This document shows, in pieces, positions 8,961 to 62,300 of a DNA stretch of 64,000 bases; the first letter of the stretch is position 1; each line of letters begins with the position of its first letter. The stretch comes from Oscillospiraceae bacterium (GTDB taxonomy: Bacteria; Bacillota; Clostridia; Oscillospirales; UBA929): positions 87,608 through 151,607 of the forward strand of contig WRLU01000001.1 of assembly GCA_009777475.1 (NCBI GenBank), in the 5' to 3' direction. Below the pieces are notes generated by a model, which was not told where the DNA came from, did not search any database, and saw only the letters and a list, made by a program, of their open reading frames with translations. The position numbers and the translations under genes were made by a program.

Positions 8961-9591
8961 TATATGTATTCCATTTGAAAATTATATCCCTTGTTCATCG
9001 CCGGATATACAATGCGCCTTTGACTGGCGGGAAGAGATTTTGGAAAAACCGGGATGCTGCCTAATACACAAACATTCTATCAGCGGTTTTTTTGTACCAC
9101 CCGATTTAATTAAGGAAAAGTACCCAAGCACCTGTGAACGGCAACTTGAACGGCTTTCTCGTATGCGAGGAATATTCGAACGTCAGGCATCAGGGGACGG
9201 CTGGGTTGAGTTTCTCCCGACCACATTATACGATGCAGTGTCTATAAACGCTAGCTGTGCTGTTTCCGGCTTGGAGCTGTTTGCAGAAAGCGGCTTAACA
9301 CTTCAACATGAAGCCCTGCGTGCCGCCCTTCAGATTATGAAAGCCTGCCTGACACGCTACCCTAATTACCGTATTGTATGGACACCTCAGCCATTGCCGG
9401 TCAGCTTGTGGATAAAGGAAGGACGGGAAGCACTGTATTGCATTGAGAAAAAACCGGAACTACTCTCAGTCCGCATCTCACCCACAAGCGAACAAACGCC
9501 TGAGCCGGGCTTAGAGCAGGCTGACGAAAAAGACAGGGGTGCGTTTTTTTTAGATGAACTCTTAGAAAGTCTTTCCGATGCTACGATGTAA
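8950..9591 (+). CDS. hypothetical protein
   Basis: 213-aa ORF with a GGGAGGA SD 9 nt upstream. It overlaps the hisS end by 11 nt. I recognise no family. Confidence 0.5.
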   Translation: MGGNICIPFENYIPCSSPDIQCAFDWREEILEKPGCCLIHKHSISGFFVPPDLIKEKYPSTCERQLERLSRMRGIFERQASGDGWVEFLPTTLYDAVSINASCAVSGLELFAESGLTLQHEALRAALQIMKACLTRYPNYRIVWTPQPLPVSLWIKEGREALYCIEKKPELLSVRISPTSEQTPEPGLEQADEKDRGAFFLDELLESLSDATM

Positions 9592-9682
9592 AACCGATGC
9601 AGGTGAAAAAAGCCTTTACAAACAGTATAGTCTTTGCTATACTGTGACAGCTATGACTTTATCGGAAGGGGTTAATGTAGAT

Positions 9683-10363
9683 ATGGCAACTGACTTTTCG
9701 CGTTCTTTGGCAATCTTGCGTAAGGAAAAGGGCGTGTCGCAACGGATAGCATGTCAAAATTTAGAGGTCACCCAAGCTGTTCTTAGCCATTACGAAACGG
9801 GCGCACGTGAACCTGGGTTAAGCTTTGTGGCAAAGGCCTGCGATTACTATGACGTAAGTGCAGACTTTCTGTTAGGAAGAACGTTGTCGCGCGATGGCGG
9901 CATTCTCAGACAGGACGATATTTCTAGCACAGAGGAGCAAAAACAAAACCGCCCGGGAAAGGGCTCGATAAGCTCGCTGTTTGCCAAAAAGTTGGTGGTC
10001 AATGCTATGAGTCTTTTGTTTGAATATGCCGGGCGTACAGGTCATACGCAATTGATTACCGAGATGACAAACTTCTTTTCCGCTGCGGTATATAAAATTT
10101 TCCGTCACTTTTATGCCTTTGTCGGTGAAAACGAAAAGGATTTTTTTTCAATAAGCAACAAGGTTTACATAAGCGCATCAAACGCAGATATGGCTGAAAG
10201 CGAGGCACGTTTACTTGCTGTATTACACGGAGACAAGCAGGCACGCCTCGAATTGCCGCCAATTTCTAATGATGCATTGTCCCAGGAGTACCCTCGGCTC
10301 GTCCAGGCTCTGTACGCCCTTGTTCATCAAGCGGGCGAACGTGCCGCAAAAAAACTACCATGA
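9683..10363 (+). CDS. XRE-family helix-turn-helix transcriptional regulator with C-terminal extension
   Basis: HTH segment LRKEKGVSQRIACQNLEVTQAVLSHYETG. ATG 9683 is preceded by GGAAGGGG. The ORF track extends to 9578. Confidence 0.7.
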   Translation: MATDFSRSLAILRKEKGVSQRIACQNLEVTQAVLSHYETGAREPGLSFVAKACDYYDVSADFLLGRTLSRDGGILRQDDISSTEEQKQNRPGKGSISSLFAKKLVVNAMSLLFEYAGRTGHTQLITEMTNFFSAAVYKIFRHFYAFVGENEKDFFSISNKVYISASNADMAESEARLLAVLHGDKQARLELPPISNDALSQEYPRLVQALYALVHQAGERAAKKLP

Positions 10364-23413: not shown

Positions 23414-23500
23414 GAAACCCATGTCTAAGCAGGTTCCCAAACATTGAAAAAGCTAGGGTTTTCAACTGTTTGCGAGTTTGCTCGGACATGGGTTTTTTGT
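23414..23500 (+). terminator. long composite hairpin plus U-run ending the tRNA unit
   Basis: AAACCCATGTC (about 23416-23426) pairs with GACATGGGTTT (about 23485-23495), followed by TTTTTG. An inner 13-bp hairpin is CAAACATTGAAAA/TTTTCAACTGTTTG. Confidence 0.55.
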
Positions 23501-23719
23501 CGCCTGAAAAAAGACGTTTTCAGAAATTTTGGTCATTTTGCAGGTGTGCGTTGGCTGAAAGCGTTGCAAATCAAGGAATGTTCGGAAACATGGGTCGGTG
23601 ACGCTTCAAATGGAAAAGTGGTTACCTCAAAACCCCATGTTGGGATGAGTTGGGGGTTCGGCCAGTGGCGGGTGGATGGTGTCATGTTTGAGGATGGCGA
23701 CGCTTGCCGAAAAAAGCGG

Positions 23720-23748
23720 TTGTCGGGCGGCATGGTCTGTGGTATAAT
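23720..23748 (+). promoter_or_regulatory. sigma-A type promoter of the Mrr-like gene
   Basis: TTGTCG (23720-23725), 17-nt spacer, TATAAT (23743-23748). Confidence 0.55.
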
Positions 23749-23783
23749 CAAGGGGAGCATGGTTGTAAATTGGAGGTATCAGA

Positions 23784-24659
23784 ATGAAAAAGATTATGCC
23801 ACAAAGCGGAGTGCCAAATTATAGTGATTTAATTAACCCAACATTGAAAGTACTTCAATCGCTGGGCGGTTCTGGGAAGAACGATGAGATATACGACGAG
23901 GTTATTAAACTCTTAAATCTCCCAGATAGTGCAATAGATGTCCCGCACGGTGAAGGAAGTCAGAGTGAACTTGAATATCGTCTTGCGTGGGCTCGCACCT
24001 ACTTAAAGAAGTATGGAGCTATTGATAATTCCGCTAGAGCTGTTTGGTCTGTAGCTTCCGCTTATATGAATGTAGAAGAACTTGATATAAACGAGGTTAT
24101 ACGGAAAGTAAAAAGCTTACATCCTGCTACGAAAACGTCCAAACCCGTATCGAAAACGATATCGGAAGTTAATGAATCGGAATTCCCTGACGAGATAAAA
24201 CCATGGCGCAAAAAACTTTACGATATATTGATTAACATGGATTCCTTCGCTTTTGAACGCTTATCACAGCGACTTTTAAGAGAAAGTGGCTTTACCCATG
24301 TTGTAGTTACTAAAAAATCTGGAGATGGGGGAATTGACGGATTTGGAAAGCTTAAAATAAATGGTATTTTTAGCTTCAACATAGCTTTTCAATGTAAACG
24401 TTACAAGGACTCATCGCCTATAGGCTCACCGGCGATTCGTGACTTTAGGGGTTCCCTTACGTCAAACATAGAAAAGGCGATTTTCATTACTACTAGCACA
24501 TTCTCTAAGGCAGCAAAAGCCGAGGCTTCAGAACCCGGCAAATTACAAATTGACCTCATGGAAGGAGAAGAATTTATTAGCAAGCTTGCTGAATGTGGAA
24601 TTGGAGTTAAAGAGGTAAAAGACTACGAAATAGACGAGAATTATTTTGCTACAGTTTAA
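23784..24659 (+). CDS. mrr: Mrr-family (type IV, modification-dependent) restriction endonuclease
   Basis: Mrr_N winged-helix N-terminus (LINPTLKVLQSLGG...EIYDEV) and Mrr catalytic core (GDGGIDGFGKL...FQCKRY). Confidence 0.85.
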   Translation: MKKIMPQSGVPNYSDLINPTLKVLQSLGGSGKNDEIYDEVIKLLNLPDSAIDVPHGEGSQSELEYRLAWARTYLKKYGAIDNSARAVWSVASAYMNVEELDINEVIRKVKSLHPATKTSKPVSKTISEVNESEFPDEIKPWRKKLYDILINMDSFAFERLSQRLLRESGFTHVVVTKKSGDGGIDGFGKLKINGIFSFNIAFQCKRYKDSSPIGSPAIRDFRGSLTSNIEKAIFITTSTFSKAAKAEASEPGKLQIDLMEGEEFISKLAECGIGVKEVKDYEIDENYFATV

Positions 24660-25090
24660 CCGCCAGCCGTCCAAACACTCCATTCCCGCTTCTCGCGCCC
24701 TCAACCCCACGCCCAAATCCCCACAAACACGAATCGATGAAACCATAAAGCCATAGGCGAAAGAGCTGTCAGAGAAAATCTTTTCGGCATTTTTCTGACC
24801 CTCTAATTACCCATAAATAATCTGGCATATAAAACGTAGTGTTTGCAAGGGTTACAAGTGTGCTGGACATGGGTTTTGGGAGTAACGACTAAGGGTCACC
24901 ACACGCAAATAATCCGAAAGATCCGCCAGTCATTAAAGCGATTGGCGAGGGGTTCGGTTTTTTGCTTTGGCTGGAAAACTTATGCCCCACCAAAGGGAGC
25001 GGCAAAACCGCTTTCTTTGTCTTTTCCGGCATTTTAATTGAGAATTTTTGAGGAGCTACGGGGCGGGGCAGATGGAGAGCAAAAAAGCCG

Positions 25091-25119
25091 TTGCCGAATC
25101 CTATAACTTTTGCTATAAT
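25091..25119 (+). promoter_or_regulatory. sigma-A type promoter of the MmeI-family gene
   Basis: TTGCCG (25091-25096), 17-nt spacer, TATAAT (25114-25119). This supports ATG 25141 as the start. Confidence 0.55.
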
Positions 25120-25140
25120 GCCATCAAGGCGGTGAAGTCA

Positions 25141-27798
25141 ATGCAACTTACATGGGACGAAATACAAGCCAACGCCGTTGCTTTTTCCAAACGTTGGAAG
25201 GATGTAACCAGCGAAAAACAGCAAGACCAAGGCTTTATTGAGGCACTGTTGCGTGTTTTTGGCGTTGATGACGCACGAGCTGTTGGGACCTTTCAAGAGA
25301 AAACCCGCATTGAGGGTAGTACAAAATGGATAGACTACCTTTGGAAAGGTCAAATTGCCATTGAAATGAAATCCGCAGGCGAAAATCTCGATCTTGCCTA
25401 TGAACAACTGCGGGAGTATATGTACAGTCTGCCTGAAGAAGATGTGCCTGACCTCTGGCTAGTATGCGACTTTGAAACCATACGGCTTTCCCGCCGCTCT
25501 ACAAATGAAGTTTGGAGCTTTAAGACCAAAGACTTGCGTAAAAACATCAAGCGTTTTGCCAACATTGCCGGACACACCACCGAGCGTTTCCGTGCCGGTC
25601 AGATAGAGTTGAACGTCAAGGCCGCTGAGAAAATGGCAAAACTCCATGATGCGCTAAAATTCCACGGATATGATGGTCACAATCTCGAGGTTTACCTTGT
25701 GCGGTTACTTTTTTGTATGTTTGCCGGGGATACCGGGATTTTTCCCAAAGGAAATTTTTACTTTTACATCAAAGATTCCAAAGAAAACGGCAGTGACCTG
25801 TCACACAGAATTTCCGATTTATTTGAAGTTCTCAATATGCCGTATGAAATAAGGGCGAAGAAAACGCTTTTGTCCGATGAATTAAAACAATTCCGATATA
25901 TAAACGGCAGCTTGTTTGAAGAAAGATTGCCTCCCGCTGATTTTGATGCCAAAATGCGAAATCTTCTCTTAGAATGCCGGGGATTTGACTGGAGCGACAT
26001 TAGCCCGGCTATTTTTGGTGCAATGTTTCAGGGTGTTATGGACAAAACCCAGCGCCGAGAACTGGGAGCGCATTACACCAGCGAAGAAAACATCTTGAAA
26101 CTCATTAACCCGCTGTTTATGGACGAGCTATGGGCAGAATTTGACCGTGTGAAAACCGACCCGGCCGCTCTTGACCGTTTTCACAATAAAATTGCAAATT
26201 TGAAGTTTTTAGACCCCGCCTGCGGCTGCGGAAATTTTTTGATTATCACTTACCGGGAATTGCGATTGCTAGAGCTTGAAGTGTTGCGGGTGAAACGCAA
26301 TTCAGGACAGATGCTAATGGACATAACGCCCTTGCTGAAAGTCAACGTCAACCAATTTTGCGGCATCGAGCTTGAGAATTTCCCCTGCCAAATCGCCACT
26401 GTTGGTCTGTGGCTGACCGACCATCAAATGAACAACCTTGTTGCTGACGAGTTTGGGATTCCGTTCGTACGCTTGCCTCTGAAAGACAGTGCGGTTATTG
26501 TGCATGGGAACGCACTGCGAATGGATTGGGAGAGTGTTGTGCCAAAACGGGAATTGAGTTTTATATTGGGCAACCCGCCGTTTGTGGGGAACAATAATTT
26601 GAATGTTTCACAGCGGGAGGATTTAGCACCTCTGTTTCCAAAGAATAAAACAATGGACTATGTTACAGCGTGGTATGTAAAATCCGCAGAATATATGAAT
26701 GATACCACGATTCGTTGTGCTTTTGTTTCAACAAATTCTATAGCGCAAGGCGAACAGGCTGCGTTATTGTGGAAACCATTATTTGAACGAGGGATACGTA
26801 TAAATTTTGGCATTCCTGCTTTTATATGGAATAATGAGGCCAAGGGAAAAGCGGCGGTACATTGCGTCATCGTTGGTTTTAGCTATCGAGAGACGGAACC
26901 AATTATCAGCCCATACTTGATTGAAGGCTCTAAAATCGTTGTGCAAAGCCGTAGCAACCCACTATGTGATGTGCTACAAATTCAAAAGGGCAACCAGCCG
27001 ACAGATGGCGGCAATTTAATCATTGAAGCGGATGAATATGCTGATTTTATTAGGAGGGAACCTCTTGCAGAAAAATATATCAAACGCCTAATTGGTGCTG
27101 TAGAGTTTATCAATAATCGTGACCGTTATTGCCTGTGGCTTGTGGGTGTCAGTCCGGCAGAATTGCGGAAAATGCCGCTTGTGATGGAGCGTGTGGATAA
27201 ATGCCGCCAAATGCGCCTTGAAAGCTCTGATGCAGGAACACGCAGACACGCCGATACCCCAACCTTATTCCGTGAAACCAATAACCCCGAAACGTTTATT
27301 GTGATTCCATCGGTATCATCCGAACGACGGCGATATATTCCCATTGGATTTTTAGACAGTTCAACAATTGCAACAAACCTTGTGCTTATCATTCCAAATG
27401 CTTCCTTGTATCATTTCGGGATACTCACATCTAATGTGCATATGGCTTGGACAAGGGTTGTGTGTGGCAGGCTCAAAAGTGACTACCGATATTCAAAGGA
27501 TTTAGTGTACAATAATTTCCCATGGCCGGACACAACAGATAGCCAGAAAACTGTAATTGAAAAGTTGGCACAAGCCATTTTGGATGCAAGGAAGCAATTT
27601 CCCGACTGTTCTCTTGCCGATCTCTACGACCCGCTCACAATGCCCACGGAGCTGTTGAACGCCCATCGCACACTTGACCGTGCTGTGATGAAGCTGTATG
27701 GTTTTGACGTGAAGGGTACGAGCGAGGCGGAGTGTGTGGCGGCGTTGATGGAGCGGCATCGGGGGTTGGTGGAGAATGAGAGGGGATGCGGGAAATGA
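25141..27798 (+). CDS. MmeI-family type IIL/IIG restriction-modification enzyme (fused PD-ExK nuclease + N6-adenine methyltransferase + TRD)
   Basis: D-x9-E-x-K nuclease motif (IDYLWKGQIAIEMK), SAM motif DPACGCGNFL and catalytic NPPF (LGNPPFVG). About 885 aa from ATG 25141. The ORF track starts at 25048. Confidence 0.85.
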   Translation: MQLTWDEIQANAVAFSKRWKDVTSEKQQDQGFIEALLRVFGVDDARAVGTFQEKTRIEGSTKWIDYLWKGQIAIEMKSAGENLDLAYEQLREYMYSLPEEDVPDLWLVCDFETIRLSRRSTNEVWSFKTKDLRKNIKRFANIAGHTTERFRAGQIELNVKAAEKMAKLHDALKFHGYDGHNLEVYLVRLLFCMFAGDTGIFPKGNFYFYIKDSKENGSDLSHRISDLFEVLNMPYEIRAKKTLLSDELKQFRYINGSLFEERLPPADFDAKMRNLLLECRGFDWSDISPAIFGAMFQGVMDKTQRRELGAHYTSEENILKLINPLFMDELWAEFDRVKTDPAALDRFHNKIANLKFLDPACGCGNFLIITYRELRLLELEVLRVKRNSGQMLMDITPLLKVNVNQFCGIELENFPCQIATVGLWLTDHQMNNLVADEFGIPFVRLPLKDSAVIVHGNALRMDWESVVPKRELSFILGNPPFVGNNNLNVSQREDLAPLFPKNKTMDYVTAWYVKSAEYMNDTTIRCAFVSTNSIAQGEQAALLWKPLFERGIRINFGIPAFIWNNEAKGKAAVHCVIVGFSYRETEPIISPYLIEGSKIVVQSRSNPLCDVLQIQKGNQPTDGGNLIIEADEYADFIRREPLAEKYIKRLIGAVEFINNRDRYCLWLVGVSPAELRKMPLVMERVDKCRQMRLESSDAGTRRHADTPTLFRETNNPETFIVIPSVSSERRRYIPIGFLDSSTIATNLVLIIPNASLYHFGILTSNVHMAWTRVVCGRLKSDYRYSKDLVYNNFPWPDTTDSQKTVIEKLAQAILDARKQFPDCSLADLYDPLTMPTELLNAHRTLDRAVMKLYGFDVKGTSEAECVAALMERHRGLVENERGCGK

Positions 27799-27997: not shown

Positions 27998-29641
27998 TTA
28001 CTTAGGTGCTTTCACGGTTACTTTGAAGCTCTTGCTCGCCGGGGTATAGCTTGCAGGTGCTGTTGTACTTGCCGGGGACGACAGGGCAGGTGACCGCAAA
28101 AGGTATACCGTATTGGTTGAGTTAACAGCCAGAGCTCCGCTCAGTGCAGACCAGTCGCCGCTGGGGTTCTTATTGTCTGAGGTGAGTGCCCACTGGTATG
28201 TACCTGTGATATTATCCCCGGTTTTGGGTATCAGGTTTCCGTCGGCATCGGCCTTGAGTTTTTCAGGGTTAGCTTTCGGGCGGGGGTTTATTGTTGGGAA
28301 ATGCACACATTTCCCGGTGTATGTCTTAGTTGCCTTGCTGTAACCCTCTGCAACATACAGGTTCATGCCCTTGTCGAGCAGTTTTTTGAACAATTCCGGG
28401 GTCAACGGCTTGTCTTTCCACTTAATACCGCCGTTTACGCTGTATGCACCTGCGGTAAAGGGCAGAGTGATTGTTTCGTTGGCAAGGTCTATCGAGGCGT
28501 TGAGAGGGTCGTTGATTGAGGGGATGTTGATGGGGAGGGAATCTATCCTGTAGGCATTCCAATCCCAATCCTCGAAGTTTGATATAAAGTAACCGTCTCC
28601 ATGATACTCAACCTCATAGTTTCCAAACGGGAATATCACATTGTTATCTTTGTCAACAATCCCCTCTGTGAAGACCTTATCTGTATGACCTGCCTTAAAA
28701 TAACCATCGCCCTGATAGTAAACCCAATCATACATTCCAAATGGGAGTATCACATTGTTATCTTTGTCGGTGACTCCCAAATCGGTGTCTCCCGTTTTGT
28801 CGTTGTCTTTATCTATTATAAAGTAACCGTCGCCGGCATAATAAACGTAAGCATACATTCCCAGCGGGAATATTATTTTGTTATCTTTGTCGACAAGTCC
28901 CGCTAGCGAGGATCCCGCAGAGATTTTATCTACCGCAAAGTAATCATCGCCCCAATATTCAATGTAATCATAGATTCCGAGCGGGAATACCATGTTGTTG
29001 TCTTTGGTGGCAACTCCATATTGAGTGCCTTTTCTTACCACAAAGTAACCATCGCCTTGATATGTAATGATGTCGTAGATTCCAAATGGGATTAACACAT
29101 TTTTATCTTCGCCGACAACGCCCCATAGGGTGCCGCTCTGTACTTTAAAGAAACCGTCACCGACATAGTCAATCGAAGTATAGCTTCCAAGCGTGAATAT
29201 CATGTTGTTATCTTTGTCGACTACTCCATATAGGGAGCCTTTTCTTACCCTAAAGAAACCGTCGCCTTGATAGTAAACGAAATCATAGGTTCCGAGCGGG
29301 AATGTCATATTGTTATTTTTGTCGGCGATTCCGCGTTGGGTACCTTTCCTTACCTCAAAGTAATCGTCGCCGGCATATTCAGTGTAATCATAGCTTCCAA
29401 GCGGGAGTATCATGTTGTTATCCTTGTCGGCGATTCCATATTGGGAACCTTTCCTTACTCTAAAGAAACCATCGCCTAAATATTGAACTACATTATACAT
29501 CCCAATCGGGAACACAGGCTTCAGAGTTGTCGACGACGCCAATGCGTCGGGGGAGGGGAACGATCCCGGCAGGGCGGGGTACAGCGTGAGCAGCATGACC
29601 CATGCAAGAACGATTGCGATGCGTTTGGTTGTTGTTTTCAT
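27998..29641 (-). CDS. secreted WG-repeat (KWG-type) protein
   Basis: Signal peptide, then about 9 tandem units of the form GDGYF.V.KG..YG..DKDNN.I.P.G.YD, then a non-repetitive C-terminal domain. Confidence 0.8.
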   Translation of the reverse strand: MKTTTKRIAIVLAWVMLLTLYPALPGSFPSPDALASSTTLKPVFPIGMYNVVQYLGDGFFRVRKGSQYGIADKDNNMILPLGSYDYTEYAGDDYFEVRKGTQRGIADKNNNMTFPLGTYDFVYYQGDGFFRVRKGSLYGVVDKDNNMIFTLGSYTSIDYVGDGFFKVQSGTLWGVVGEDKNVLIPFGIYDIITYQGDGYFVVRKGTQYGVATKDNNMVFPLGIYDYIEYWGDDYFAVDKISAGSSLAGLVDKDNKIIFPLGMYAYVYYAGDGYFIIDKDNDKTGDTDLGVTDKDNNVILPFGMYDWVYYQGDGYFKAGHTDKVFTEGIVDKDNNVIFPFGNYEVEYHGDGYFISNFEDWDWNAYRIDSLPINIPSINDPLNASIDLANETITLPFTAGAYSVNGGIKWKDKPLTPELFKKLLDKGMNLYVAEGYSKATKTYTGKCVHFPTINPRPKANPEKLKADADGNLIPKTGDNITGTYQWALTSDNKNPSGDWSALSGALAVNSTNTVYLLRSPALSSPASTTAPASYTPASKSFKVTVKAPK

Positions 29642-30337: not shown

Positions 30338-32458
30338 TTATGCGCCCGGTATTCTCAGCACTTGACCGATTGACAGATTGCTATCGGTCAATCCGTTCAG
30401 CTGCATGATGATTTCTATCGTTGTGCCAAACCGTTGAGCTAATGCCCAGAGGGTATCCCCGCTCTGTACGGTGTAATTGAAATATTCTCCGTTGGCATTG
30501 CCGCCCGGTCCTTTCAGCGATTCTAGTATCCCGCGTACTATAGCATCGGCATATGCGTTGAAATTTTGATCAAAAAGCTCGTTGTCACGCTCGTTGGTTA
30601 TAAAACCGAGTTCAACCAACATGGCAGGGGCTTGAGTATTTCTTAAAACGGCAAAATTCTCCTGCTTGACTCCCCTATTGCTCTGTACACCCACACTGAC
30701 AATCGCGTTCTGCACGTTTTGGGCATAGCTTATATTAATGGGAGGGGCATTAGGCTTCACAAAGGTTTCTACTCCGTTCGCAGCCGGGCTTACAGAGGCG
30801 TTCCTGTGGAGGGAAACAAATATATCGGCATTATTACGATTGGCTATTTCGCTCCTCTCCTCCAGCGGTACAAAGACATCAGAGCTTCTGGTTAAAATAA
30901 CTCTTTGCTTTTCCGTCTGAAGCCTCTGCGCTACAGCTAAGGCAAGATTCAGATTATCGTCTTTTTCACGCCGTGTACCTGATGACGCACCCCAGTCGGA
31001 GCCTCCGTGACCCGCATCAATAACAACTGTTAAGGTGTTGGTATCCCGATAGTTGTTGTACTGTGTTACAATAGCGTTCCATGTAGCAGGACCTATTACA
31101 CCATCCACGGCAAGCCCGAACAGGGACTGGAATGCCCTAACCGCGTTTTCAGTAAGCGGTCCGAAAGCCCCATCTGCGTTAAGCCTTGGTATAGTTGGAA
31201 AAACTCCGGCAAGGTCGTTCATGTATTGCTGCATGACCCTTACGCTTTCGCCAGTTGATCCGAGCCTGAGAGGTACGCCTGGATACATAGGCGATCCGGG
31301 ATTAGCAGTTTGGAGGTTGTTGTATTCACGTACAATAGCCGCCCAGGTAATAGGGCCTATAATACCATCGATGCCCAAGCCGAACTGTCTTTGAAATGCC
31401 CTGACTGCGTTTTCGGTAAGCGGCCCGAAAATCCCATCCGCTGTAATCACTGGAATAGAGGGAAATGCCGCGGCAATGGCATTGAGGTACTGCTGCATAA
31501 GCCTTACACTGTCGCCTCTGCTTCCGTTTCTGAGCAGTGTGCCGGGGAATGCCGGTCCTGTAGGCGGCGGGGTTGGCGGAATCACAGGGGGAGTTGCTTG
31601 GAGACTGTTGTACTGTTCCACAATAGCATTCCAGGTAATAGGGCCTATAATACCATCGATGCCTAAGCCGAACTGTCTTTGAAATGCCCTGACTGCGTTT
31701 TCGGTAAGCGGCCCGAAGATTCCGTCCGCTGTAATTCCTGGGATAGAAGGAAATGCCGCGGCAATGGCATTGAGGTACTGCTGCATAAGCCTTACACTGT
31801 CGCCCCGGGAGCCTGCTCTGAGCGGTGCGCCGGGATATACAGGTCCAGTTGGCGGTGGTGTTATCTGAGGGGGTACCGAGCCCTTTGCCGAATTATACAC
31901 CTCATAGATTTTGTTCCAATCCGCGGCGTTTACAACGCCGTCCGCACTTAGGCCGAACCGGTTTTGGAATCTTATAACCGCATCCTTTGTAAGCGCACCG
32001 AAGCTTCCGTCCTGTGCAAGAGCCGGGACATCCGGGTAAAACTGCGAGATAAACGTAAGCATATATTGCAAGCGGGTAACTAGACCGCCTTTGGTGCCCA
32101 TGCTGACAGTAGTGTTAGGCGGGATTGTGCCTGTTACTATGCGGTCCCCCTCACTGGTCAGTTGGGCAAGCCTTGTCACCGCAACATAACGATAGGTTAT
32201 AAGGTTCCAGGTAGCTCTGTCTATGATACCGGTTTGCGGGAGGGAATTGATTGACTGAAAAGCCCTCACCGCATTGGCGGTATCTGCCCCATAAATTCCG
32301 TTGGGATTTGAAATGCCCGGGATATAAGGGAAATTTTGGCGCACACGGTTCAAGTATTTCTGCATGAGCTCCACGTCCGGACCCTGTGCCCCCTGAGACA
32401 GGGGTACCCCAGGATATGACTCGGTAATAGGGGCAACCGGGGCAGTATCTATTATCAA
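30338..32458 (-). CDS. cell-wall hydrolase: 5 PG_binding_1 repeats + N-acetylmuramoyl-L-alanine amidase (Amidase_3) + C-terminal LysM; 5'-truncated
   Basis: Repeated GIFG.LT..AV..FQ modules, an amidase_3 core (VVIDAGHGG...VSLHRNA) and a LysM domain (YTVQSGDTLWALA). The only usable start is TTG 32458, which has no SD. The frame stays open to 32536 with SpoIID-like ALQILRHYY. Confidence 0.8.
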   Translation of the reverse strand: MIIDTAPVAPITESYPGVPLSQGAQGPDVELMQKYLNRVRQNFPYIPGISNPNGIYGADTANAVRAFQSINSLPQTGIIDRATWNLITYRYVAVTRLAQLTSEGDRIVTGTIPPNTTVSMGTKGGLVTRLQYMLTFISQFYPDVPALAQDGSFGALTKDAVIRFQNRFGLSADGVVNAADWNKIYEVYNSAKGSVPPQITPPPTGPVYPGAPLRAGSRGDSVRLMQQYLNAIAAAFPSIPGITADGIFGPLTENAVRAFQRQFGLGIDGIIGPITWNAIVEQYNSLQATPPVIPPTPPPTGPAFPGTLLRNGSRGDSVRLMQQYLNAIAAAFPSIPVITADGIFGPLTENAVRAFQRQFGLGIDGIIGPITWAAIVREYNNLQTANPGSPMYPGVPLRLGSTGESVRVMQQYMNDLAGVFPTIPRLNADGAFGPLTENAVRAFQSLFGLAVDGVIGPATWNAIVTQYNNYRDTNTLTVVIDAGHGGSDWGASSGTRREKDDNLNLALAVAQRLQTEKQRVILTRSSDVFVPLEERSEIANRNNADIFVSLHRNASVSPAANGVETFVKPNAPPINISYAQNVQNAIVSVGVQSNRGVKQENFAVLRNTQAPAMLVELGFITNERDNELFDQNFNAYADAIVRGILESLKGPGGNANGEYFNYTVQSGDTLWALAQRFGTTIEIIMQLNGLTDSNLSIGQVLRIPGA
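31343..31804. repeat. 288-bp tandem duplication inside the amidase gene
   Basis: 31343-31516 and 31631-31804 are near-identical, with only a few substitutions. They encode two almost identical PG_binding_1 modules. Confidence 0.85.
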
Positions 32459-32640
32459 ATCACTGGGATAATAATGCCTCAGTATTTGCAGTGCAGTTCT
32501 GCCATTATTGGCGGGCAGTTGGATAAACCTAGTATGTCAAAAATTCAGAAAACATCATGGGTTTCGACGTTTTTTATTTTTCGGAATAGGACAAGTCGCA
32601 AATTCAATATAGTTATAAAAACTGTATTGGAGTTGAGGGC

Positions 32641-32790
32641 TTGAAGGATGAAAATGAAAAAATCATATTGCCCAAAGAATTACAAAAGCAAATACTGCAA
32701 TTTTTTCTGAAAACCTCTATACCAAGAATCAAAAAAGAAAAACTCACGCTTATGTCTGAGCAAAAATCAGACGGAGGCGATAAAAAATGA
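32641..32790 (+). CDS. 49-aa ORF translationally coupled to the recombinase (candidate accessory/directionality factor)
   Basis: TTG start 8 nt after GGAG. Peptide LKDENEKIILPKELQKQILQFFLKTSIPRIKKEKLTLMSEQKSDGGDKK. Its stop overlaps the recombinase ATG (ATGA). Confidence 0.4.
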   Translation: MKDENEKIILPKELQKQILQFFLKTSIPRIKKEKLTLMSEQKSDGGDKK

Positions 32791-34352
32791 GGGAAAGCAC
32801 GCGAAAAAACTTAAATACAGCTATTTACGTAAGGGTATCCACCGAGGAACAGGCACAAGAGGGCTTTTCAATCAGGGCTCAGACCGAAAAACTAAAATCG
32901 TATGCCTTGTTGAAGGATTGGAGCATTTTCGACATTTACAGCGATGAGGGCATAAGCGGTAAGAATATTACAGAACGACCTGCCATAAACAGGATGATTA
33001 GCGATATTGAGAGCGGAAGGGTCAATAATATTCTTGTTTTTAAGGTTGACAGGCTCACGAGAAATACAAAAAATTTACTTGAATTAGTGGAGTTGTTTGA
33101 AGATTTTGATTGTGCGTTTAATTCCCTGACCGAAAACATAGACACCGACACGCCCAGCGGCAGGATGTTTCTAAAAATAATCGGTATATTTGCCGAATTT
33201 GAACGTGAAAATTTATCAAGCAGATTAAAGCTGGGCCTAGAGCGGAAAGTAAAAGAGGGGTATACACTGGCATCGAACACGGTGAGTTATGGATATATCA
33301 GAGAAAAAGGCCAAAAGATACAGGAAATACACCCGGAAGAAGCAGGGATTGTAAGGGAAATATTTTCGTTATATTTAGATGGCGATATGTCTATGACCCA
33401 AATTGCAAGCATACTGAATGAAAGAAAGCTAGATACCAAAATGAATGGAAGCATGTGGACTGTGATGACGGTAAAGAGAATATTAACCAATTCTTCATAT
33501 ATCGGCAAGGTAAGGTATTCCGTTAAGGATGATGAGAAATACTTTGAAGCAGATGGGCACCACGAAAGAATTTTATCTGATGAAATCTTTTATCTTGCAC
33601 AAGAAAAAATGGAGAGAATAACTAATGTTTTGCAAACAAAACGGCCAAAGGACATCTGTTATTTTTGCGGCGTGTTGTTTTGTGGGTTATGCGGAAGCAA
33701 ATTTTCAACACATCATAACAAGGGAATAAAAAACAAAAATGGCGTAGTATCTCTGAAAATCTCCTATCGGTGTAATAAAAAGGTTTATTTTAATGATGAT
33801 ATCCGGTGCGATTCCCCTAATATCAGTCATACGAAGGTGGAAGACGCCTTTACGAAATATATAGAAAGGGTAAACGATTTTACAGAAAATGAAATCATTG
33901 AACCCAAAAAGGACGAAGGTCGAAAAAGCATCATGGAATATATCATTGCTTGTGAAGATAAATTACGCAGAGTTGGTATTAAAAAGAAGCGGATTATGGA
34001 GCAATATGCCAACGAAGAAATAAGCTTTGATGAATACAAGAGCCTGACGGAAATTCTCAACACAAGGTCGGACATATTGGATGAGGAATTGAGAGCCGCA
34101 AGGGCAAAAACGGAGGTTAAGGAAGAGGTTTCTATATCAAAAAAAGATATTGTTCTAAGCTTAAAGGAAAACTGGGATGCACTAAATAACAGTGAGAGAA
34201 TGATATTCCTGCAAAGCTTTGTTAAGAAAATCACTGTCATAGTTAAAAAGGTTACACTAAGGGAAAACGCTGTGAAAATTGACAGCATAGAATTTCATTC
34301 AGGCGAATTGCAAGCAGGACAGCTAATTCATTCAAAACGGAGAAAAGCATAA
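32787..34352 (+). CDS. large serine recombinase (SpoIVCA / phage-integrase type)
   Basis: Resolvase catalytic domain (AIYVRVSTEEQ, DRLTRN), a recombinase domain, a Cys-rich zinc-ribbon (CYFCGVLFCGLCG...YRC) and a coiled-coil C-terminus. Confidence 0.9.
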   Translation: MRESTRKNLNTAIYVRVSTEEQAQEGFSIRAQTEKLKSYALLKDWSIFDIYSDEGISGKNITERPAINRMISDIESGRVNNILVFKVDRLTRNTKNLLELVELFEDFDCAFNSLTENIDTDTPSGRMFLKIIGIFAEFERENLSSRLKLGLERKVKEGYTLASNTVSYGYIREKGQKIQEIHPEEAGIVREIFSLYLDGDMSMTQIASILNERKLDTKMNGSMWTVMTVKRILTNSSYIGKVRYSVKDDEKYFEADGHHERILSDEIFYLAQEKMERITNVLQTKRPKDICYFCGVLFCGLCGSKFSTHHNKGIKNKNGVVSLKISYRCNKKVYFNDDIRCDSPNISHTKVEDAFTKYIERVNDFTENEIIEPKKDEGRKSIMEYIIACEDKLRRVGIKKKRIMEQYANEEISFDEYKSLTEILNTRSDILDEELRAARAKTEVKEEVSISKKDIVLSLKENWDALNNSERMIFLQSFVKKITVIVKKVTLRENAVKIDSIEFHSGELQAGQLIHSKRRKA

Positions 34353-34398
34353 GTAATTTTAATACTGATTTTACCTGCCATCTTGTGTGTGTGCTGGC

Positions 34399-34427
34399 TT
34401 GCACGGCCAATTTTCATGTGCTATACT
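34399..34427 (+). promoter_or_regulatory. sigma-A type promoter of glnA
   Basis: TTGCAC (34399-34404), 17-nt spacer, TATACT (34422-34427). Confidence 0.55.
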
Positions 34428-34505
34428 GTCGTTAATTCACCATAGGGGGGTGTGGCTCTTGAAAAAGCTGGATTTCCCCGGAAATGAAATCAGGGAGGTG
34501 CCCGC

Positions 34506-35822: not shown

Positions 35823-35876
35823 TGGGTGCCAAGGGTACCCATTTCTGGCTGTCGAGCACAAAAGGGGGCCTGTGTG

Positions 35877-36446
35877 ATGGAAAGTGCTCTAATTGTCTCC
35901 TTTGCGGATAAAGGCACAGCTTATTTTACCGAGCTTTTAGCTGAGGCAGCTATCCGCAGGATAACCACTCTTCCGTCCTGCGCCGAGGCACGCAGGACGC
36001 TTTTGGTGAGGGAATTTGATTTAATAGTGGTCAACGCGCCGCTGAGGGACGAGCCGGGGGAAAATTTCGCAAGGGATATAGCCTCCAGGGGGACAGCGCA
36101 GGTTATTCTTGCGGTAAAAAGCGAATACTTCGGGCAGGTGTCGGCTGCCTGCGAGGGAGACGGTGTGCTTACTGTATCAAAGCCGGTAAACAGAAATCTT
36201 TTCCGGGCGTCGCTCTCACTTGCTAAATCCGCCCATAGAATGGTCAGAAGAGTTCAGTCGGAAAATGCGCGGCTGAAGCAAAAAATTGAAGACATACGCG
36301 TTGTTGACCGTGCAAAATGGCTGCTCATATCCCGCATGAATATGTCGGAGCAGGACGCTCACAGGCTTATAGAGAAGCAGGCAATGGATATGCGCTCCAC
36401 AAAAAGGGCTGTTGCCGAGGGTATTTTAAAAACATACGAGAATTGA
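35877..36446 (+). CDS. ANTAR-domain RNA-binding antiterminator with pseudo-receiver domain (NitR/AmiR-like)
   Basis: C-terminal ANTAR domain (IEDIRVVDRAKWLLISRMNMSEQDAHRLIEKQAMDMR). The receiver-like N-terminus has Asn at the phospho-acceptor position (DLIVVN). Confidence 0.85.
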   Translation: MESALIVSFADKGTAYFTELLAEAAIRRITTLPSCAEARRTLLVREFDLIVVNAPLRDEPGENFARDIASRGTAQVILAVKSEYFGQVSAACEGDGVLTVSKPVNRNLFRASLSLAKSAHRMVRRVQSENARLKQKIEDIRVVDRAKWLLISRMNMSEQDAHRLIEKQAMDMRSTKRAVAEGILKTYEN

Positions 36447-46495: not shown

Positions 46496-46930
46496 ATGAA
46501 AAGAATTCTAGTAATCAATGGACCTAATATAAATCTGCTGGGCATACGGGAGCCGGAGATTTACGGAAAAGAGAGTTATGCAGATTTGCTTGCTTTTATT
46601 TGCAATTCGGCAAGGTCTGCCGGAGTTGAGGTTAGGTGTTTTCAATCTAATTCCGAGGGTGCCATTGTAGACGAAATTCAAAACGCCATAGGGCAATTTA
46701 ACGGAATTATAATCAATCCCGCCGCATATACCCATACCAGTATTGCCATTCCCGATGCGCTGAAAGCAACCGGAATACCTGCCGTTGAAGTACACCTATC
46801 CGATATTTCAAATCGTGAAGAATACCGGAAAATTTCTTATACCGCCGAGGCCTGCTGTGCTACCATAGCAGGAAAAGGTTTTGAGGGCTACAGCGAGGCA
46901 ATTGAGGTGCTGTCTTCTATATCACACTAA
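46496..46930 (+). CDS. aroQ: type II 3-dehydroquinate dehydratase
   Basis: VINGPNINLLGIREPEIYG signature. 144 aa. Confidence 0.95.
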   Translation: MKRILVINGPNINLLGIREPEIYGKESYADLLAFICNSARSAGVEVRCFQSNSEGAIVDEIQNAIGQFNGIIINPAAYTHTSIAIPDALKATGIPAVEVHLSDISNREEYRKISYTAEACCATIAGKGFEGYSEAIEVLSSISH

Positions 46931-47671
46931 TCCGTATAATTCAAACGGCTCGTTCTGCAAGGCTTGCCTGTAAAGCTCAATGGTGTTCTTGACTTGAACC
47001 AGCATACATTTGGCGTTACCAATCATTCCGTCAGCAATGTATCCCGCTTCATATGCCCTGTCTTGGATCGTATACCAAGGCTTTACAGGCGGATTCCATG
47101 CTTCAAGAAACCAGTCAGATTCAGGATAAACCTCTCTCGCTTCCTGCGAAGGGGCAAACCTGTTTTTGATTTCATCAGGCAGAGCATCCTCAACATAGTG
47201 CATGGCGGACATTTTGTAAATATCAACGCCCATCAAAAGAGCATAGCCGCCGGAATCTATCAAATGCTGGAAACTCTCAGCGTGCCTCTCGGCATCTTTC
47301 CCCCAAGCGGAAACCCGGAATATACCCTCTCCAGTAACAATACCGGGCATTTTCCTGAATGTTTCGGGAACTATTCCCATGCGAGACTTCTCATTATCAG
47401 TGTGCAAAACTTTGATTTTTTGCGTCAAACCTAACTTTTTATCTGTTTCGGTCAAGGGCAAATCAGGCGAGAGTTTGAACGAGGGCATAACAATCGCCCC
47501 ATCCCTGCCCACGATATGTTTGAGTGCTTCTATTACCATCAAAGCACCGCCGTCAACATAGCCCAAATTACGCAGGGATGAATGTACTTCCAGCATCATC
47601 CCCGCTGTAACGCCCAACTGCATAAGACCTTTTTCTATTTCGATTCTCGTTATAGGCATAGCAAAATTCAA
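46922..47671 (-). CDS. AAC(3)-family aminoglycoside N-acetyltransferase-like protein (YokD-like)
   Basis: N-terminus I.KG L.QLGV..G..L.VHSSL..LG.V.GGA..VI.AL, typical of the AAC(3) fold. The start is TTG 47671 or ATG 47659. Confidence 0.75.
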   Translation of the reverse strand: MNFAMPITRIEIEKGLMQLGVTAGMMLEVHSSLRNLGYVDGGALMVIEALKHIVGRDGAIVMPSFKLSPDLPLTETDKKLGLTQKIKVLHTDNEKSRMGIVPETFRKMPGIVTGEGIFRVSAWGKDAERHAESFQHLIDSGGYALLMGVDIYKMSAMHYVEDALPDEIKNRFAPSQEAREVYPESDWFLEAWNPPVKPWYTIQDRAYEAGYIADGMIGNAKCMLVQVKNTIELYRQALQNEPFELYGLV

Positions 47672-47675
47672 CTCC
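47501..47675. repeat. direct repeat copy A (5' end plus RBS region of the AAC(3) gene)
   Basis: About 175 bp, roughly nine-tenths identical by eye to 48366-48540. Confidence 0.8.
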
Positions 47676-48292: not shown

Positions 48293-48525
48293 ATTTCCTC
48301 CCCTTTCAACTCGTCAATTCCAAGCTTATGAAATCTCTTTATAATTTTATCTTGTATTATTTCACATCCCCTGCCCACGATATGTTTGAGTGCGTCTATT
48401 ACCATCAAAGCACCGCCGTCAACATAGCCCAAACTGCTCAGGGACGAATGCACTTCCAGCATCATTCCCGCTGTAACACCCAATTGCATGAGACCGTTTT
48501 CTATTTCGATTTTCGTCATAGACAC
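48289..48525 (-). pseudogene. duplicated 5' fragment of the AAC(3) gene, fused out of context
   Basis: The first ~52 residues (MSMTKIEIENGLMQLGVTAGMMLEVHSSLSSLGYVDGGALMVIDALKHIVGRG) mirror the full gene. They are followed by unrelated sequence ending in an ATGA-type overlap with the methyltransferase. Confidence 0.7.
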
Positions 48526-48540
48526 AGCACAATTCAGCTC
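48366..48540. repeat. direct repeat copy B
   Basis: Matches 47501-47675 (see copy A). Confidence 0.8.
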
Positions 48541-48596
48541 CCGGACGCAATATTTTCAACACAGTCAGACCTCTTTGGCTGCTTCGCTGCCGGCGA

Positions 48597-57959: not shown

Positions 57960-58006
57960 CAAGCCCCCGACAAAAAAATTCTTAAAATTTTTTTGTCGGG
58001 GGCTTG
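57960..58006. terminator. bidirectional terminator after tRNA-Ser
   Basis: A perfect 19-bp palindrome, CAAGCCCCCGACAAAAAAA ... TTTTTTTGTCGGGGGCTTG. Confidence 0.8.
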
Positions 58007-58029
58007 ACGGCACCATTTCCCCTTATATA

Positions 58030-58606
58030 TCAAGGGGTTTTCCAAACAACCTCAAGCTTCATGCCGGGATATACCAATACCTTGTCAACCAACGCTTCCA
58101 CCAATTCAGGGGATAGTTTTTTCGCCCCAAGTGCCCCCCTCACGGTGCTAGACAATGGTTTGCCCGCCGCTTTTTCTTTGTTCTTGGCGGCACAACGGCT
58201 CCTTTTGTCAAATTCAACTTTGGTAGTTTTGTACTGTTCTTCGCCAATCTCCCCAAGAACAAACTGCTCGTACAAAATTCGCTTGGCATCTTCGTTTTCA
58301 GAGGATTGGGGCGAAATATTATCCTCAATATTGCCCAAAAAACTGTTTCGCTCGCTGAGATACAGCCTTGTAAACCTCTGTTTCCAGCTCTTTTGCCGGA
58401 ATTTTAAGCCGATAGCAGTCTCTATCCGGCGCAACATGGGTAAATTGGCAGTGAAACGCTGTGTTTTTAGTTTGGCTGAGTCTCATTTTATGCCCGCAGC
58501 AACCGCAGACCACTTTGCCTTTCAGAGGGTTGTCAAATTTTCCATATCGCTCCCATGTTCCGATTTTCCGTCCCCTCAACGGAGACTTGCGCAAGCAGAT
58601 TACCAA
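58030..58606 (-). pseudogene. large serine recombinase, C-terminal remnant (catalytic domain deleted, internal frameshift)
   Basis: A zinc-ribbon piece (GKVVCGCCGHKM...FHCQF) and a C-terminal piece (LSPELVEALVDKVLVYPGMKLEVVWK) lie in two frames. No resolvase domain. Confidence 0.7.
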
Positions 58607-58866
58607 GGCGGTGCTGGAGGAGTTCAGCCAAGCGGTTGAGCTGAAAGCCGAGAAACATCAAGGGCTTGCCGACCAAATGCGTGAGGCTGGGGCAAAGGCG
58701 GCGGCTCATAATGCTGAAAAAGCAGGCCAGCCGAAACCGTCAAGGGCGGCGGAGATTGCGGTCTAAAAGCAGACCGATAGGAAAAGGCGGCGTTTTGCCG
58801 CCTCCTTTTCCTTTGACGAAACCAAAAATGTGTGGTAAAATCAAAACAATACGAGGGGGTAGCGGC

Positions 58867-60123: not shown

Positions 60124-60198
60124 TCAAACAAATGTCGGTATGAAAGCACCCATTCAGAACGGATGGGTGCTTTGTGCCGCACCGAAAAGGAGGAAAAT

Positions 60199-61353: not shown

Positions 61354-61396
61354 CATTGCAACGATTATTCGTTATAATGCAGTCAGGAGGATTTTA

Positions 61397-61969: not shown

Positions 61970-62300
61970 TATGCCGTTTACCAAAGAAAATCTTGACACA
62001 ACCCTCAAAGAACTCGGCAAGACGTTCCGAAAGCTAAACGGTACAAAAATGCCCGCTGAAATTATCCTGATTGGTGGTGCGGCAATACTTGCCAATTACG
62101 GTTTTCGTGAGATGACCTATGATATTGATGCTGTAATCCTTGCCTCTTCCGCTATGAAAGAGGCGATTAACCATGTAGGCGACAAAATGGGATTGCCTAA
62201 CGGCTGGCTCAATGCGGACTTCAAAAGGACGGCATCCTTTTCGGAGAAACTCTTGCGGAATATTATCTGCGCACATATAACTTCCTGCTCGAAGGCATAA
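61959..62300 (+). CDS. minimal nucleotidyltransferase-fold protein, probably C-terminally truncated
   Basis: GGAAILANYGFREMTYDIDA fits the G[GS]-x9-13-D-x-D NTase motif. Overlaps the XRE gene by 11 nt. The sequence changes character after about residue 95. Confidence 0.5.
   Translation: MSADMPFTKENLDTTLKELGKTFRKLNGTKMPAEIILIGGAAILANYGFREMTYDIDAVILASSAMKEAINHVGDKMGLPNGWLNADFKRTASFSEKLLRNIICAHITSCSKA

Follow-up and report, generated by a model that had tools for sequence, protein, structure and literature searches.

The window analysed in this study, a stretch of 64,000 nt of metagenomic DNA of an Oscillospiraceae organism, contains a minus-strand cell-wall hydrolase gene without a beginning, and a small recombinase cassette adjoins the break. 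This raises the question of where the beginning of the gene is and whether the recombinase may put the gene together again.

Structure of the broken gene

The features on the gene side of the break are as follows.

30338-32512, minus strand: C-terminal part (residues 285-1007 and the stop codon) of the hydrolase gene, here assigned to the SleC family; 32512 is the exact point at which full-length relatives begin to match, and the match is collinear once the gene is joined in silico.
32513-32539, minus strand: out-of-gene extension of the frame (HTRFIQLP) into the recombinase-side arm, to the stop at 32537-32539.

The gene piece retains the last part of the SleC catalytic domain together with five PG_binding_1 repeats, Amidase_3, and LysM, whereas a start codon, a ribosome-binding site, and a promoter are all lacking. 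A preliminary description of the window had called the gene broken and without a plausible start, and this was confirmed: the first start of the open reading frame is TTG 32458, with no ribosome-binding site, and the frame stays open upstream as far as the stop at 32537-32539, reading ...HTRFIQLPANNGRTALQILRHYYPSD there. The N-terminal domain, promoter, and ribosome-binding site had likewise been described as missing. About 284 N-terminal codons present in every homolog are indeed absent, and in 102 of 120 homologs the HTRFIQLPANNGRTALQILRHYYPSD motif is preceded by about 290 residues, which include a conserved N-terminal domain that is lacking here. When the window was searched by tblastn with seven homologs, no N-terminal half was found in it, the only match being the junction of the C-terminal half.

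Location of the missing half

The window was extended with an ENA contig (ERZ27257348) and JGI contigs, from termite-gut samples, into a composite sequence, in which the ENA contig and one JGI contig overlap the window with 0 mismatches. The N-terminal half of the gene (P0121, 299 aa) was found intact on the same metagenomic contig, outside the window, 45.7 kb to the right and on the opposite strand.

77350-78249 (composite coordinates), plus strand: N-terminal gene half P0121, on the contig beyond the window.
32510-64000, no strand: left 31.5 kb of a putative invertible segment of 45,696 nt, which continues to composite coordinate 78203.

Between the halves are core genes such as glnA, the shikimate/aromatic amino acid pathway, alaS, and secG. 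The segment also carries the cassette, an ANTAR regulator, a surface protein, an mltG-like gene, and toxin-antitoxin genes, and past the window a VanY/two-component/PBP5 cluster and the N-terminal gene half itself. The preliminary description had considered a split sporulation-type gene with its other half elsewhere, and the finding of P0121, with matching recombinase half-sites at both junctions, supports this. It had also cited the skin and SPbeta elements as precedents. The geometry differs from theirs: one half is on each strand, 45.7 kb and a set of core genes lie between them, and therefore rejoining needs an inversion and not an excision. An excisable element would have foreign DNA between directly oriented attL and attR sites, whereas the sites here are inverted, with 45,696 nt between them, of which only 1.9 kb stands out as foreign in composition.

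It could be argued that this geometry is an artefact, the contig being chimeric and the real genome having a conventional element between adjacent halves. The source is metagenomic, and the contigs of all assemblies stop just past the N-half junction, 73-113 nt beyond its stop codon; the 163-nt tail, which is what comes after the P' arm, matched nothing among the sequences compared here. Linkage across 35.5-55.1 kb of the window rests on the window assembly and one ENA contig. However, the sequences of the window, of the ENA contig, and of two JGI contigs are 100% identical wherever they overlap, including the passage from the recombinase to glnA and that from 55-64 kb to the N-terminal half. 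No repeat was found at the boundary of the cassette and glnA, and an independent organism has the same cassette directly followed by chromosomal genes. A chimeric contig is thus hardly credible.

Predicted recombination sites and product

At the break in the window the following site is predicted.

32489-32529, no strand: site 1, of attR type, with a gene-side arm at 32489-32507, the core TTGGC at 32508-32512, and a recombinase-side arm GGGCAGTTGGATAAACC to 32529; the partner core is GCCAA, and the arm is homologous in the related loci L007 and L010.

The search for the missing coding segment and an att-like flank, proposed in the preliminary description, yielded both, as the N-terminal half ends in the core GCCAA and a half-site. 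This core, at composite 78199-78203, is the reverse complement of TTGGC at 32508-32512. One site has the layout gene arm, GCCAA, and recombinase arm P', and the other recombinase arm P, GCCAA, and gene arm; by sequence, they make up an inverted pair of attL and attR type. The crossover dinucleotide of site 1 would be TT at 32508-32509. A second half-site resembling P' was not found downstream of the recombinase in the window or in L010.

When the 45,696-nt segment is inverted in silico, a single ORF of 1007 aa without interruption results, which aligns to an uninterrupted homolog (P0002) with 69% identity and 0 gaps over 493 aa. In a tblastx comparison with the locus of this homolog, the match passes from the N-terminal to the C-terminal half exactly at the junction; outside the gene itself, the flanks of the two loci do not align. 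The predicted attB (rejoined) junction is GGAACAGTGACACTTGCCAATAATGGCAGAACTGCACTG and the predicted attP (reciprocal) junction is CTAGGTTTATCCAACTGCCCGCCAAGGCCGGCATTATAATAAACCACC. The latter, GGTTTATCCAACTGCCCGCC-AA-GGCCGGCATTATAATAAACC, is palindromic at 15 of 23 positions and attP-like. In their shared GCCAA core with its non-palindromic central dinucleotide, the pseudo-palindromic predicted attP, and arms homologous in L007, L010, and L092, the sites resemble the att sites of large serine recombinases.

Identity of the joined gene

The joined gene encodes a member of the SleC family of spore cortex-lytic enzymes. Residues 4-401 of the protein joined in silico align to residues 61-476 of 480 of SleC (PDB code: 9h68) with E = 4.6e-77, and it has a pre-pro region, a catalytic domain, and a C-terminal PG_binding_1 domain, collinear with this solved structure. 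Beyond the architecture of 9h68 it has four more PG_binding_1 repeats, Amidase_3, and LysM. The sequence at the break had earlier been likened to SpoIID/LytB domains. To an extent this was correct, since positions 239-264 of TIGR02669 (SpoIID_LytB) match residues 274-299 of the joined protein, straddling the break, with E = 7.5e-10. However, the match covers the last 26 profile positions only and scores 39.2 bits against a curated cut-off of 83.3, short of a full SpoIID/LytB domain; PF08486 matches homologs weakly, and the upstream fragment of the C-terminal half alone matched nothing. The label SpoIID is therefore imprecise, the domain as a whole being the pre-pro and catalytic region of SleC. 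In Clostridium difficile, sleC is sigma-K dependent and required for germination (PMC3789822, PMC5025042). That the source organism, which is uncultured, sporulates is assumed here from its gene content.

Recombinase cassette and its promoter

The cassette extends from 32513 to about 34400 and contains the following features.

32583-32614, plus strand: sigma-E-like motif, GGAATA at 32583-32588 and, after 16 nt, CAATATAGTT at 32605-32614, with ATA at -35 and a CATA-like element at -10.
32641-32790, plus strand: ORF of 49 aa with a TTG start and GGAG 12 nt upstream, its stop overlapping the recombinase ATG; conserved in L007.
32787-34352, plus strand: large serine recombinase of 521 aa with domain matches to Resolvase, Recombinase, and zinc ribbon.
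34353-34420, plus strand: right boundary of the cassette, where the GC drop ends, with a terminator-like hairpin at 34395-34409; glnA starts at 34506.

The GC content of 32513-34400 is 37.1%, compared with 47.4% in the rest of the window, and no other stretch of such size in the window is lower; it climbs back just ahead of glnA. This agrees with the AT-rich cassette that had been noticed at the break, and the overlap of the 49-aa ORF with the start of an intact recombinase, also noticed earlier, was found again at 32787. The 1.9-kb cassette is a recombinase module at one end of the segment and not the whole of the intervening DNA. Its operon begins 129 nt from the junction, so that the recombinase lies beside one junction as in sporulation intervening elements.

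The recombinase has the resolvase domain with its serine nucleophile (PF00239, E = 4.2e-40; Ser18 in YVRVSTEEQ, invariant among 20 homologs), the C-terminal Recombinase domain (PF07508, E = 2.4e-23), and a zinc ribbon (PF13408 Zn_ribbon_recom, E = 1.9e-10), and thus the composition of a large serine recombinase. It also matches the integrase family phrog_95 (E = 1.2e-125) and the catalytic domain of TP901-1 integrase (E = 9.5e-29). Every invariant column of the 20 homologs is kept, and the enzyme appears to be intact. A Hin/Gin-type invertase is ruled out by the length of 521 aa and by C-terminal domains of the integrase type; with the Mpi model the protein reaches 34.9 bits, where the cut-off is 272.

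The 49-aa ORF is kept upstream of the recombinase in 74 related loci, with the motif KI.LPK.LQ..M.KFFLKTSIPR.KK. Its one PHROG match is phrog_30936 (E = 2.8e-4), to which PHROG assigns no function, and no Pfam family was matched. The homologs, in 56 representative clusters, are all small stand-alone proteins, and among these clusters no fusion to a recombinase was found. It is plausible that the protein is a directionality factor or an accessory protein. The ORF is always co-transcribed with the recombinase, a poor fit to the integration step required by mobile relatives.

The motif upstream of the operon resembles the sigma-E consensus (described in PMC3789822) and is present in all of the 12 closest cassettes; when the pattern is relaxed, it is found in 30 of the 74 upstream regions, compared with 8.9% of shuffles. 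A sigma-K-like motif, AC-N17-CATATAATA, is found 78 nt upstream of the N-terminal half, as one of only 4 matches in 78 kb. Both motifs are short, and we infer their sigma factors from them. A scan of the cassette for sigma-70 promoters gave fewer matches than in shuffles and is uninformative.

Related loci

Canonical sleC-intervening elements were found in termite-gut metagenome-assembled genomes (L007/L008, L123, L011, L049, L075, and the viral contig L109). They have the recombinase clade (45-62% identity), the small ORF, and the target gene in common with the cassette, but differ from it as insertions of 7.5-11 kb that carry relaxase and coupling-protein genes or are predicted to be viral. 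They lie between adjacent, co-oriented gene halves and can therefore excise. In L007 and L123, the module is at the same sleC codon inside ordinary excisable elements of 9.7-10.5 kb, with homologous arms and an AA core; the recombinase is 59% identical and the small ORF is conserved. A second organism, one of the Defluviitaleaceae, has, in L010, a minimal cassette as here, flanked by metabolic genes, and L092 is the bare partner half-site of L010, followed by housekeeping genes. Combined, their arms make a strong palindrome that is identical in its outer 13 nt. The minimal cassette recurs in other termite-gut Clostridia. In L040, a related recombinase (46% identical) splits a sigK-like gene. 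In gut Clostridia, related recombinases cut sleC at about five different positions, which suggests that such elements have repeatedly targeted the control of germination capacity.

These loci bear on whether the split gene is an evolutionary relic, a sleC-intervening element broken by chromosomal inversion and deletions, leaving a dead gene and half-sites that no longer recombine. The canonical relatives are mobilizable elements of about 10 kb, and therefore the minimal form could be a decay product; moreover, the cassette is AT-rich foreign DNA and neither recombined junction, attB or attP, was seen. JGI metagenome contigs were scanned for the attB junction and the P' arm without a match, yet sequence known from JGI sample 3300002469 was missed as well, and therefore these negatives carry no weight. 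Against decay, both halves are full-length open frames, equally similar to the intact homolog (69% identity without gaps), and the recombinase retains all its invariant residues. Preservation extends to the small ORF and the promoter motif, to the identical cores, and to both arms, and L010 with L092 gives another family that has the minimal architecture. A relic is thus unlikely, and the remnant of an integrated element that truncated the gene, as the preliminary description also considered, is not favoured with both halves, both sites, and the recombinase intact.

Proposed mechanism

Overall, a mother-cell-specific inversion that reassembles the split SleC-family gene is the preferred reading, to which we give a probability of roughly 0.6. 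The fuller proposal has about even odds: that a domesticated serine integrase and its 49-aa partner invert about 46 kb of core chromosome as part of a natural developmental programme and assemble a germination enzyme gene in the mother cell, which would be the first sporulation rearrangement of the inversion type. In this proposal, the occurrence and timing of recombination and the role of the 49-aa protein would follow this scheme. The inherited chromosome would hold the sleC-family gene in two pieces, and the 5' piece would have a promoter to itself. During sporulation, the operon of the small ORF and the recombinase would be switched on in the mother cell by a sigma-E-type promoter, and the recombinase, with the small protein as directionality factor, would carry out the crossover of both sites at their central AA. 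The conserved small ORF and the sigma-E-like motif speak, indirectly, for a rearrangement in sporulation that needs a directionality factor. When att sites are inverted, large serine recombinases invert the DNA that separates them, and they need a directionality factor to recombine attL with attR (PMC5025042, PMC12286644). Since the sites are inverted, the 45,696-nt segment would be inverted instead of excised, yielding an intact gene of 1007 aa with a sigma-K-type promoter in front of it and, at the other end, a pseudo-palindromic attP-like site. The forespore chromosome would remain unrearranged, and the split state would therefore be inherited.

The same parts might also work as a reversible switch outside the mother cell, where the recombinase alone would split the gene (attP x attB) and, with the small protein, rejoin it, so that germination bet-hedging would arise from heritable subpopulations. 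An inversion loses no DNA, and therefore both states would be viable and heritable; pairs of an integrase and a directionality factor do serve as synthetic two-state inversion switches (PMC12286644). However, three assemblies have the split state only, assembled straight through site 1, and the promoter motifs look like mother-cell promoters. The small ORF and the recombinase are also unlikely to be made separately, since they are translationally coupled. Such a switch is quite improbable.

Comparison with known systems

The closest parallels to the proposed mother-cell inversion are elements that interrupt sporulation genes. The gin element in gerE of Bacillus cereus ATCC10987 (GirC and the 42-aa GirX) is a non-phage element that splits a mother-cell sporulation gene, with a large serine recombinase, a very small accessory protein without known motif, and att sites that have an imperfect inverted repeat and predicted cleavage at a central AA (PMC5595907). 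Its recombinase and small factor are expressed together in sporulation (PMC5595907). However, gin is a 28.6-kb element with directly oriented flanking sites and is excised as a circle (PMC5595907), whereas the locus here has a 1.9-kb module, inverted sites 45.7 kb apart with core chromosome between them, and sleC as its target.

In skin, a large serine recombinase (SpoIVCA in Bacillus subtilis; CD1231 with the directionality factor CD1234 in C. difficile) rejoins a split mother-cell gene, sigK, and the timing factor is under sigma-E control (PMC5025042). CD1231 inverted DNA in Escherichia coli when the att sites were in inverted orientation (PMC5025042). Skin differs in that the gene for the directionality factor is separate from that of the recombinase (PMC5025042). 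In SPbeta in spsM (SprA/SprB), vfbin, vrin, and yin, a timed attL x attR reaction by a serine integrase and a small directionality factor restores a sporulation gene (PMC4191935, PMC5499854, PMC10747680), and SprA is a detectable structural relative of the recombinase described here. These are prophages or prophage-like and are removed by excision; none is in sleC and none acts by inversion.

Site-specific inversion alters coding sequence also in the case of the Hin/Gin/Mpi invertases and of intragenic invertons. The Hin/Gin/Mpi enzymes are invertases of about 190 aa with a C-terminal helix-turn-helix, which need short inverted repeats and an enhancer. Here, in contrast, the recombinase is of the integrase type with 521 aa and the sites are asymmetric attL/attR sites. 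The chemistry proposed is identical to that of synthetic switches (phiC31, Bxb1, and Nm60 with directionality factors), in which inverted attL x attR gives attP and attB (PMC12286644). Those switches are engineered plasmid constructs over a few hundred bases, whereas this would be a natural chromosomal case of 45.7 kb.

The described sporulation rearrangements (sigK, spsM, spoVFB, spoVR, gerE, and yabG) all excise a mobile element, and a literature search of incomplete coverage found neither a split sleC nor an inversion-type sporulation rearrangement. If the proposal is true, two genes and two half-sites can be enough for a serine integrase system that acts on the host chromosome, flipping 45.7 kb that include glnA, the aromatic amino acid pathway, and alaS, and the germination lytic enzyme SleC is added to the interrupted genes. 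It would then be a natural counterpart of the engineered inversion switches, and this compact pair of recombinase and partner, with defined sites in a natural inverted attL/attR arrangement, may serve as a genome-engineering tool.

Broken gene and adjoining cassette

The minus-strand ORF at 30338-32458 of the window starts with a TTG codon without a ribosome-binding site, and its frame remains open for 78 nt beyond this codon, until a stop at 32537-32539. By Pfam, the fragment contains five PG_binding_1 domains, Amidase_3, and LysM, and no N-terminal domain was detected. In 102 of the 120 best homologs, the motif ...SQWGT..LA..G....IL..YYP... is located ~290 residues in, behind a conserved domain that is absent from the window gene. 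With seven full-length relatives in tblastn, homology begins exactly at 32512, and no match to the missing ~284 residues was found anywhere in the window. This cell-wall hydrolase gene is indeed broken at its 5' end, as the preliminary description had proposed. Directly downstream of it lies the gene of a 547-aa secreted protein (27998-29641, minus) with about eight 35-residue WG-type repeats, encoded by 105-nt periodic DNA repeats. Between tsf and this gene, an Mrr-family restriction endonuclease and a 916-aa MmeI-family type IIL restriction-modification enzyme (23444-27798) probably form a small defence island.

The GC content at 32513-34400, beyond the break, is 37.1% versus 47.4% elsewhere in the window, the lowest for a stretch of such size there. 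This stretch carries two genes that overlap, at the stop of a 49-aa ORF (the small ORF) and the ATG of a second ORF, whose 521-aa product has the domains Resolvase, Recombinase, and Zn_ribbon_recom; this bears out the AT-rich recombinase cassette suggested earlier. The cassette borders directly on the glnA leader (34395-34505), and the gene of an ANTAR-domain regulator (35826-36446) is found downstream of glnA; insertion of the cassette ~100 nt upstream might affect the regulation of glnA.

The missing half and map of the region

The best match of the N-domain profile is P0121, a stand-alone 299-aa protein ('MAG: hypothetical protein FWH04_00870 [Oscillospiraceae bacterium]') with the C-terminus ...GMSQWGTVTLA, then 15 unrelated residues. 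It is encoded on a JGI contig of sample 3300002469, and also on ENA contig k141_4008824 (77,415 nt), which carries the recombinase of the window as well. A composite of 78,362 nt was assembled from the window and the overlapping contigs L090, L091, and L003, with zero mismatches in the overlaps. The 5' piece of the gene (N-half) is at composite 77350-78249 on the plus strand, 13 kb past the right end of the window, and the 3' piece (C-half) is on the minus strand. The earlier suggestion of a split gene with its other half elsewhere is supported. The recombinase-side arms at the C-half and N-half junctions are termed arm P and arm P', respectively.

Order of features along the composite
Left of arm P: C-half (window 30338-32512), minus strand, leftward
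Between arms P and P', in order: 49-aa ORF, recombinase, glnA, ANTAR regulator, surface protein, shikimate/aromatic pathway, alaS, secG, toxin-antitoxin genes, VanY/two-component/PBP5 cluster, N-half (composite 77350-78249, plus strand, rightward)
Right: arm P' after the N-half, then end of contig

The sequence left of the C-half is core chromosome too (recJ, relA, hisS, RNase J, rpsB, tsf). Every assembly ends, perhaps at a repeat, 73-113 nt past the N-half. About 120 nt beyond arm P', just where three assemblies end, TTCCAAAAGGT-ACA-CCTTTTGGAA (L003 10976-11001) makes up a near-perfect hairpin, which might be a terminator or mark the border of a repeated element.

Two 173-nt direct repeats (window 47503-47675 and 48369-48541), 90% identical and 866 nt apart, may represent a partial duplication; the first copy extends over the 5' end of an aminoglycoside 3-N-acetyltransferase-like gene (46922-47671, minus), and the interval between the copies holds an unannotated ORF of 249 aa. 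The region of window ~58000-64000 and L090 11021-12395 includes a lower-GC patch (~42.5%) with a HipA-like kinase, HTH proteins, DUF6036, and a Phd/ParE pair. After the patch, beyond the window edge, come short fragments that look like pseudogene remnants, one NadA-like (99 aa) and one from the N-terminus of a SAM synthetase (80 aa).

Predicted recombination sites and product

Read along the gene, the N junction is CACTT-GCCAA-GGCCGGCATTATAATAAACC and the C junction GGTTTATCCAACTGCCC-GCCAA-TAATGGCAGAACT. The plus-strand cores, TTGGC at window 32508-32512 and GCCAA at composite 78199-78203, are mutually inverted, and a strand exchange made in silico at AA/TT flips a segment of 45,696 nt. One product is a minus-strand ORF of 1007 aa without interruption; the other is a reciprocal site, GGTTTATCCAACTGCCCGCC-AA-GGCCGGCATTATAATAAACC, in which 15 of 23 arm positions are complementary, as would be expected of a serine-integrase attP. 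No recombined junction came to light; two metagenome scans, which also missed a sequence known from the JGI sample, had no bearing on this.

The joined protein aligns with P0002, an uninterrupted 918-aa homolog, at 69% identity with 0 gaps over 493 residues, and in tblastx of the P0002 locus the N-half match gives way to the C-half match exactly at the junction. Residues 4-401 align end to end with the SleC structure (PDB code: 9h68; E = 4.6e-77), and some relatives are named 'spore cortex-lytic protein' at NCBI. The SpoIID/LytB signature noted previously is real but local: positions 239-264 of TIGR02669 match residues 274-299 of the rejoined protein (E = 7.5e-10, below cut-off), which is precisely the motif cut by the break, while the window fragment alone gave no match to this profile. 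SpoIID structures matched over the last 28 residues only.

Overall, the arrangement is best read (probability roughly 0.6) as a minimal serine-integrase cassette that would flip 45.7 kb of chromosome, most likely in the mother cell, and thereby restore a SleC-family gene. The main rival, that the arrangement is a non-functional relic, seems unlikely. The split could have originated by an inversion with one breakpoint within an ordinary element, or the recombinase itself could have inverted the DNA between sleC and a resident attP. In the literature, the coverage of which was incomplete, no description was found of a split sleC or of a sporulation rearrangement of the inversion type.

Related loci in other genomes

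A dispersed form of the same minimal system is found elsewhere. L010 (Defluviitaleaceae) has a C-half, small ORF, and recombinase, then, 83 nt on, FMN reductase, GH10 xylanase, and oxidoreductases; L092, from the same metagenome, has an N-half, 36 nt on unrelated genes, then serS and gpsA. Each half is ~80% identical to one common full-length homolog. The two are very likely partners, since their recombinase-side arms form a strong palindrome (GGTGTTTTTTATT...) on either side of a common GCTAA core. A third N-half (L005) is followed by housekeeping genes.

L007/L008 carry a 9.7-kb insertion at the same codon of the same gene, between adjacent, co-oriented halves, with arms and AA core homologous to those of the window system. 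The insertion encodes a HEPN/nucleotidyltransferase pair, M48 peptidase, TraG-like coupling protein, Replic_Relax protein, tyrosine integrase, a 50-aa ORF, and a 516-aa recombinase 59% identical to that of the window. A comparable element in L123 spans 10.5 kb and has a MobA relaxase. A recombinase-profile scan of species-representative genomes gave 80 loci, mostly from termite-gut Oscillospiraceae and Defluviitaleaceae MAGs, among which sleC-like genes are split at residues ~180, 222, 245, and 286; a predicted viral contig splits one at residue ~295. Across genome and viral contigs (L011, L013, L049, L057, L058, L063, L075, L076, L109), SleC-like genes of termite-gut Clostridia are cut at about five codon positions by elements with related serine recombinases, some adjoining the N-half co-directionally and others the C-half divergently.

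L040 has a sigK-like gene split by a recombinase that is 46% identical to that of the window. There (9541-9855; Defluviitaleaceae MAG WRBD01000023.1), the recombinase, with the same small upstream ORF, adjoins a broken sigma-factor gene ending ...NLRLVAYVAKKYNNHAKDAEDLISVGT, which looks like a skin-type interruption of sigK. The small ORF is kept directly upstream of the recombinase in 74 loci, and its family comprises 56 representative clusters, all small stand-alone proteins without annotation.

Putative regulation and comparison with known systems

In all 12 closest cassettes, GGAATA is followed after 14-16 nt by (C/A/T)ATATA, ~35-55 nt ahead of the small ORF; -10 boxes of the CATA(C/T)A type occur in more distant ones. 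Upstream of the N-half is AC-N17-CATATAATA, of which there are 4 matches in 78 kb versus ~9 expected from shuffles. The sigma-E and sigma-K promoters of C. difficile have a common -10 element and are told apart by the -35 (ATA in the former, AC in the latter), and sleC of this species is sigma-K dependent and required for germination (PMC3789822, PMC5025042). The promoter-like motifs fit a scheme in which the recombinase module would be expressed early in the mother cell and the rejoined gene late. For large serine recombinases, site topology does not matter; in E. coli, CD1231 inverted the DNA lying between sites of opposite orientation (PMC5025042), and attL x attR substrates are inverted by integrase and directionality-factor pairs (PMC12286644).

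The same logic, an early recombinase module and then a late rejoined gene, is known from skin (PMC5025042) and gin (PMC5595907). In gin, a ~40-aa accessory protein is co-expressed with the recombinase, a precedent for the 49-aa candidate partner, and the central AA of its site is likewise a precedent for the central AA here (PMC5595907).
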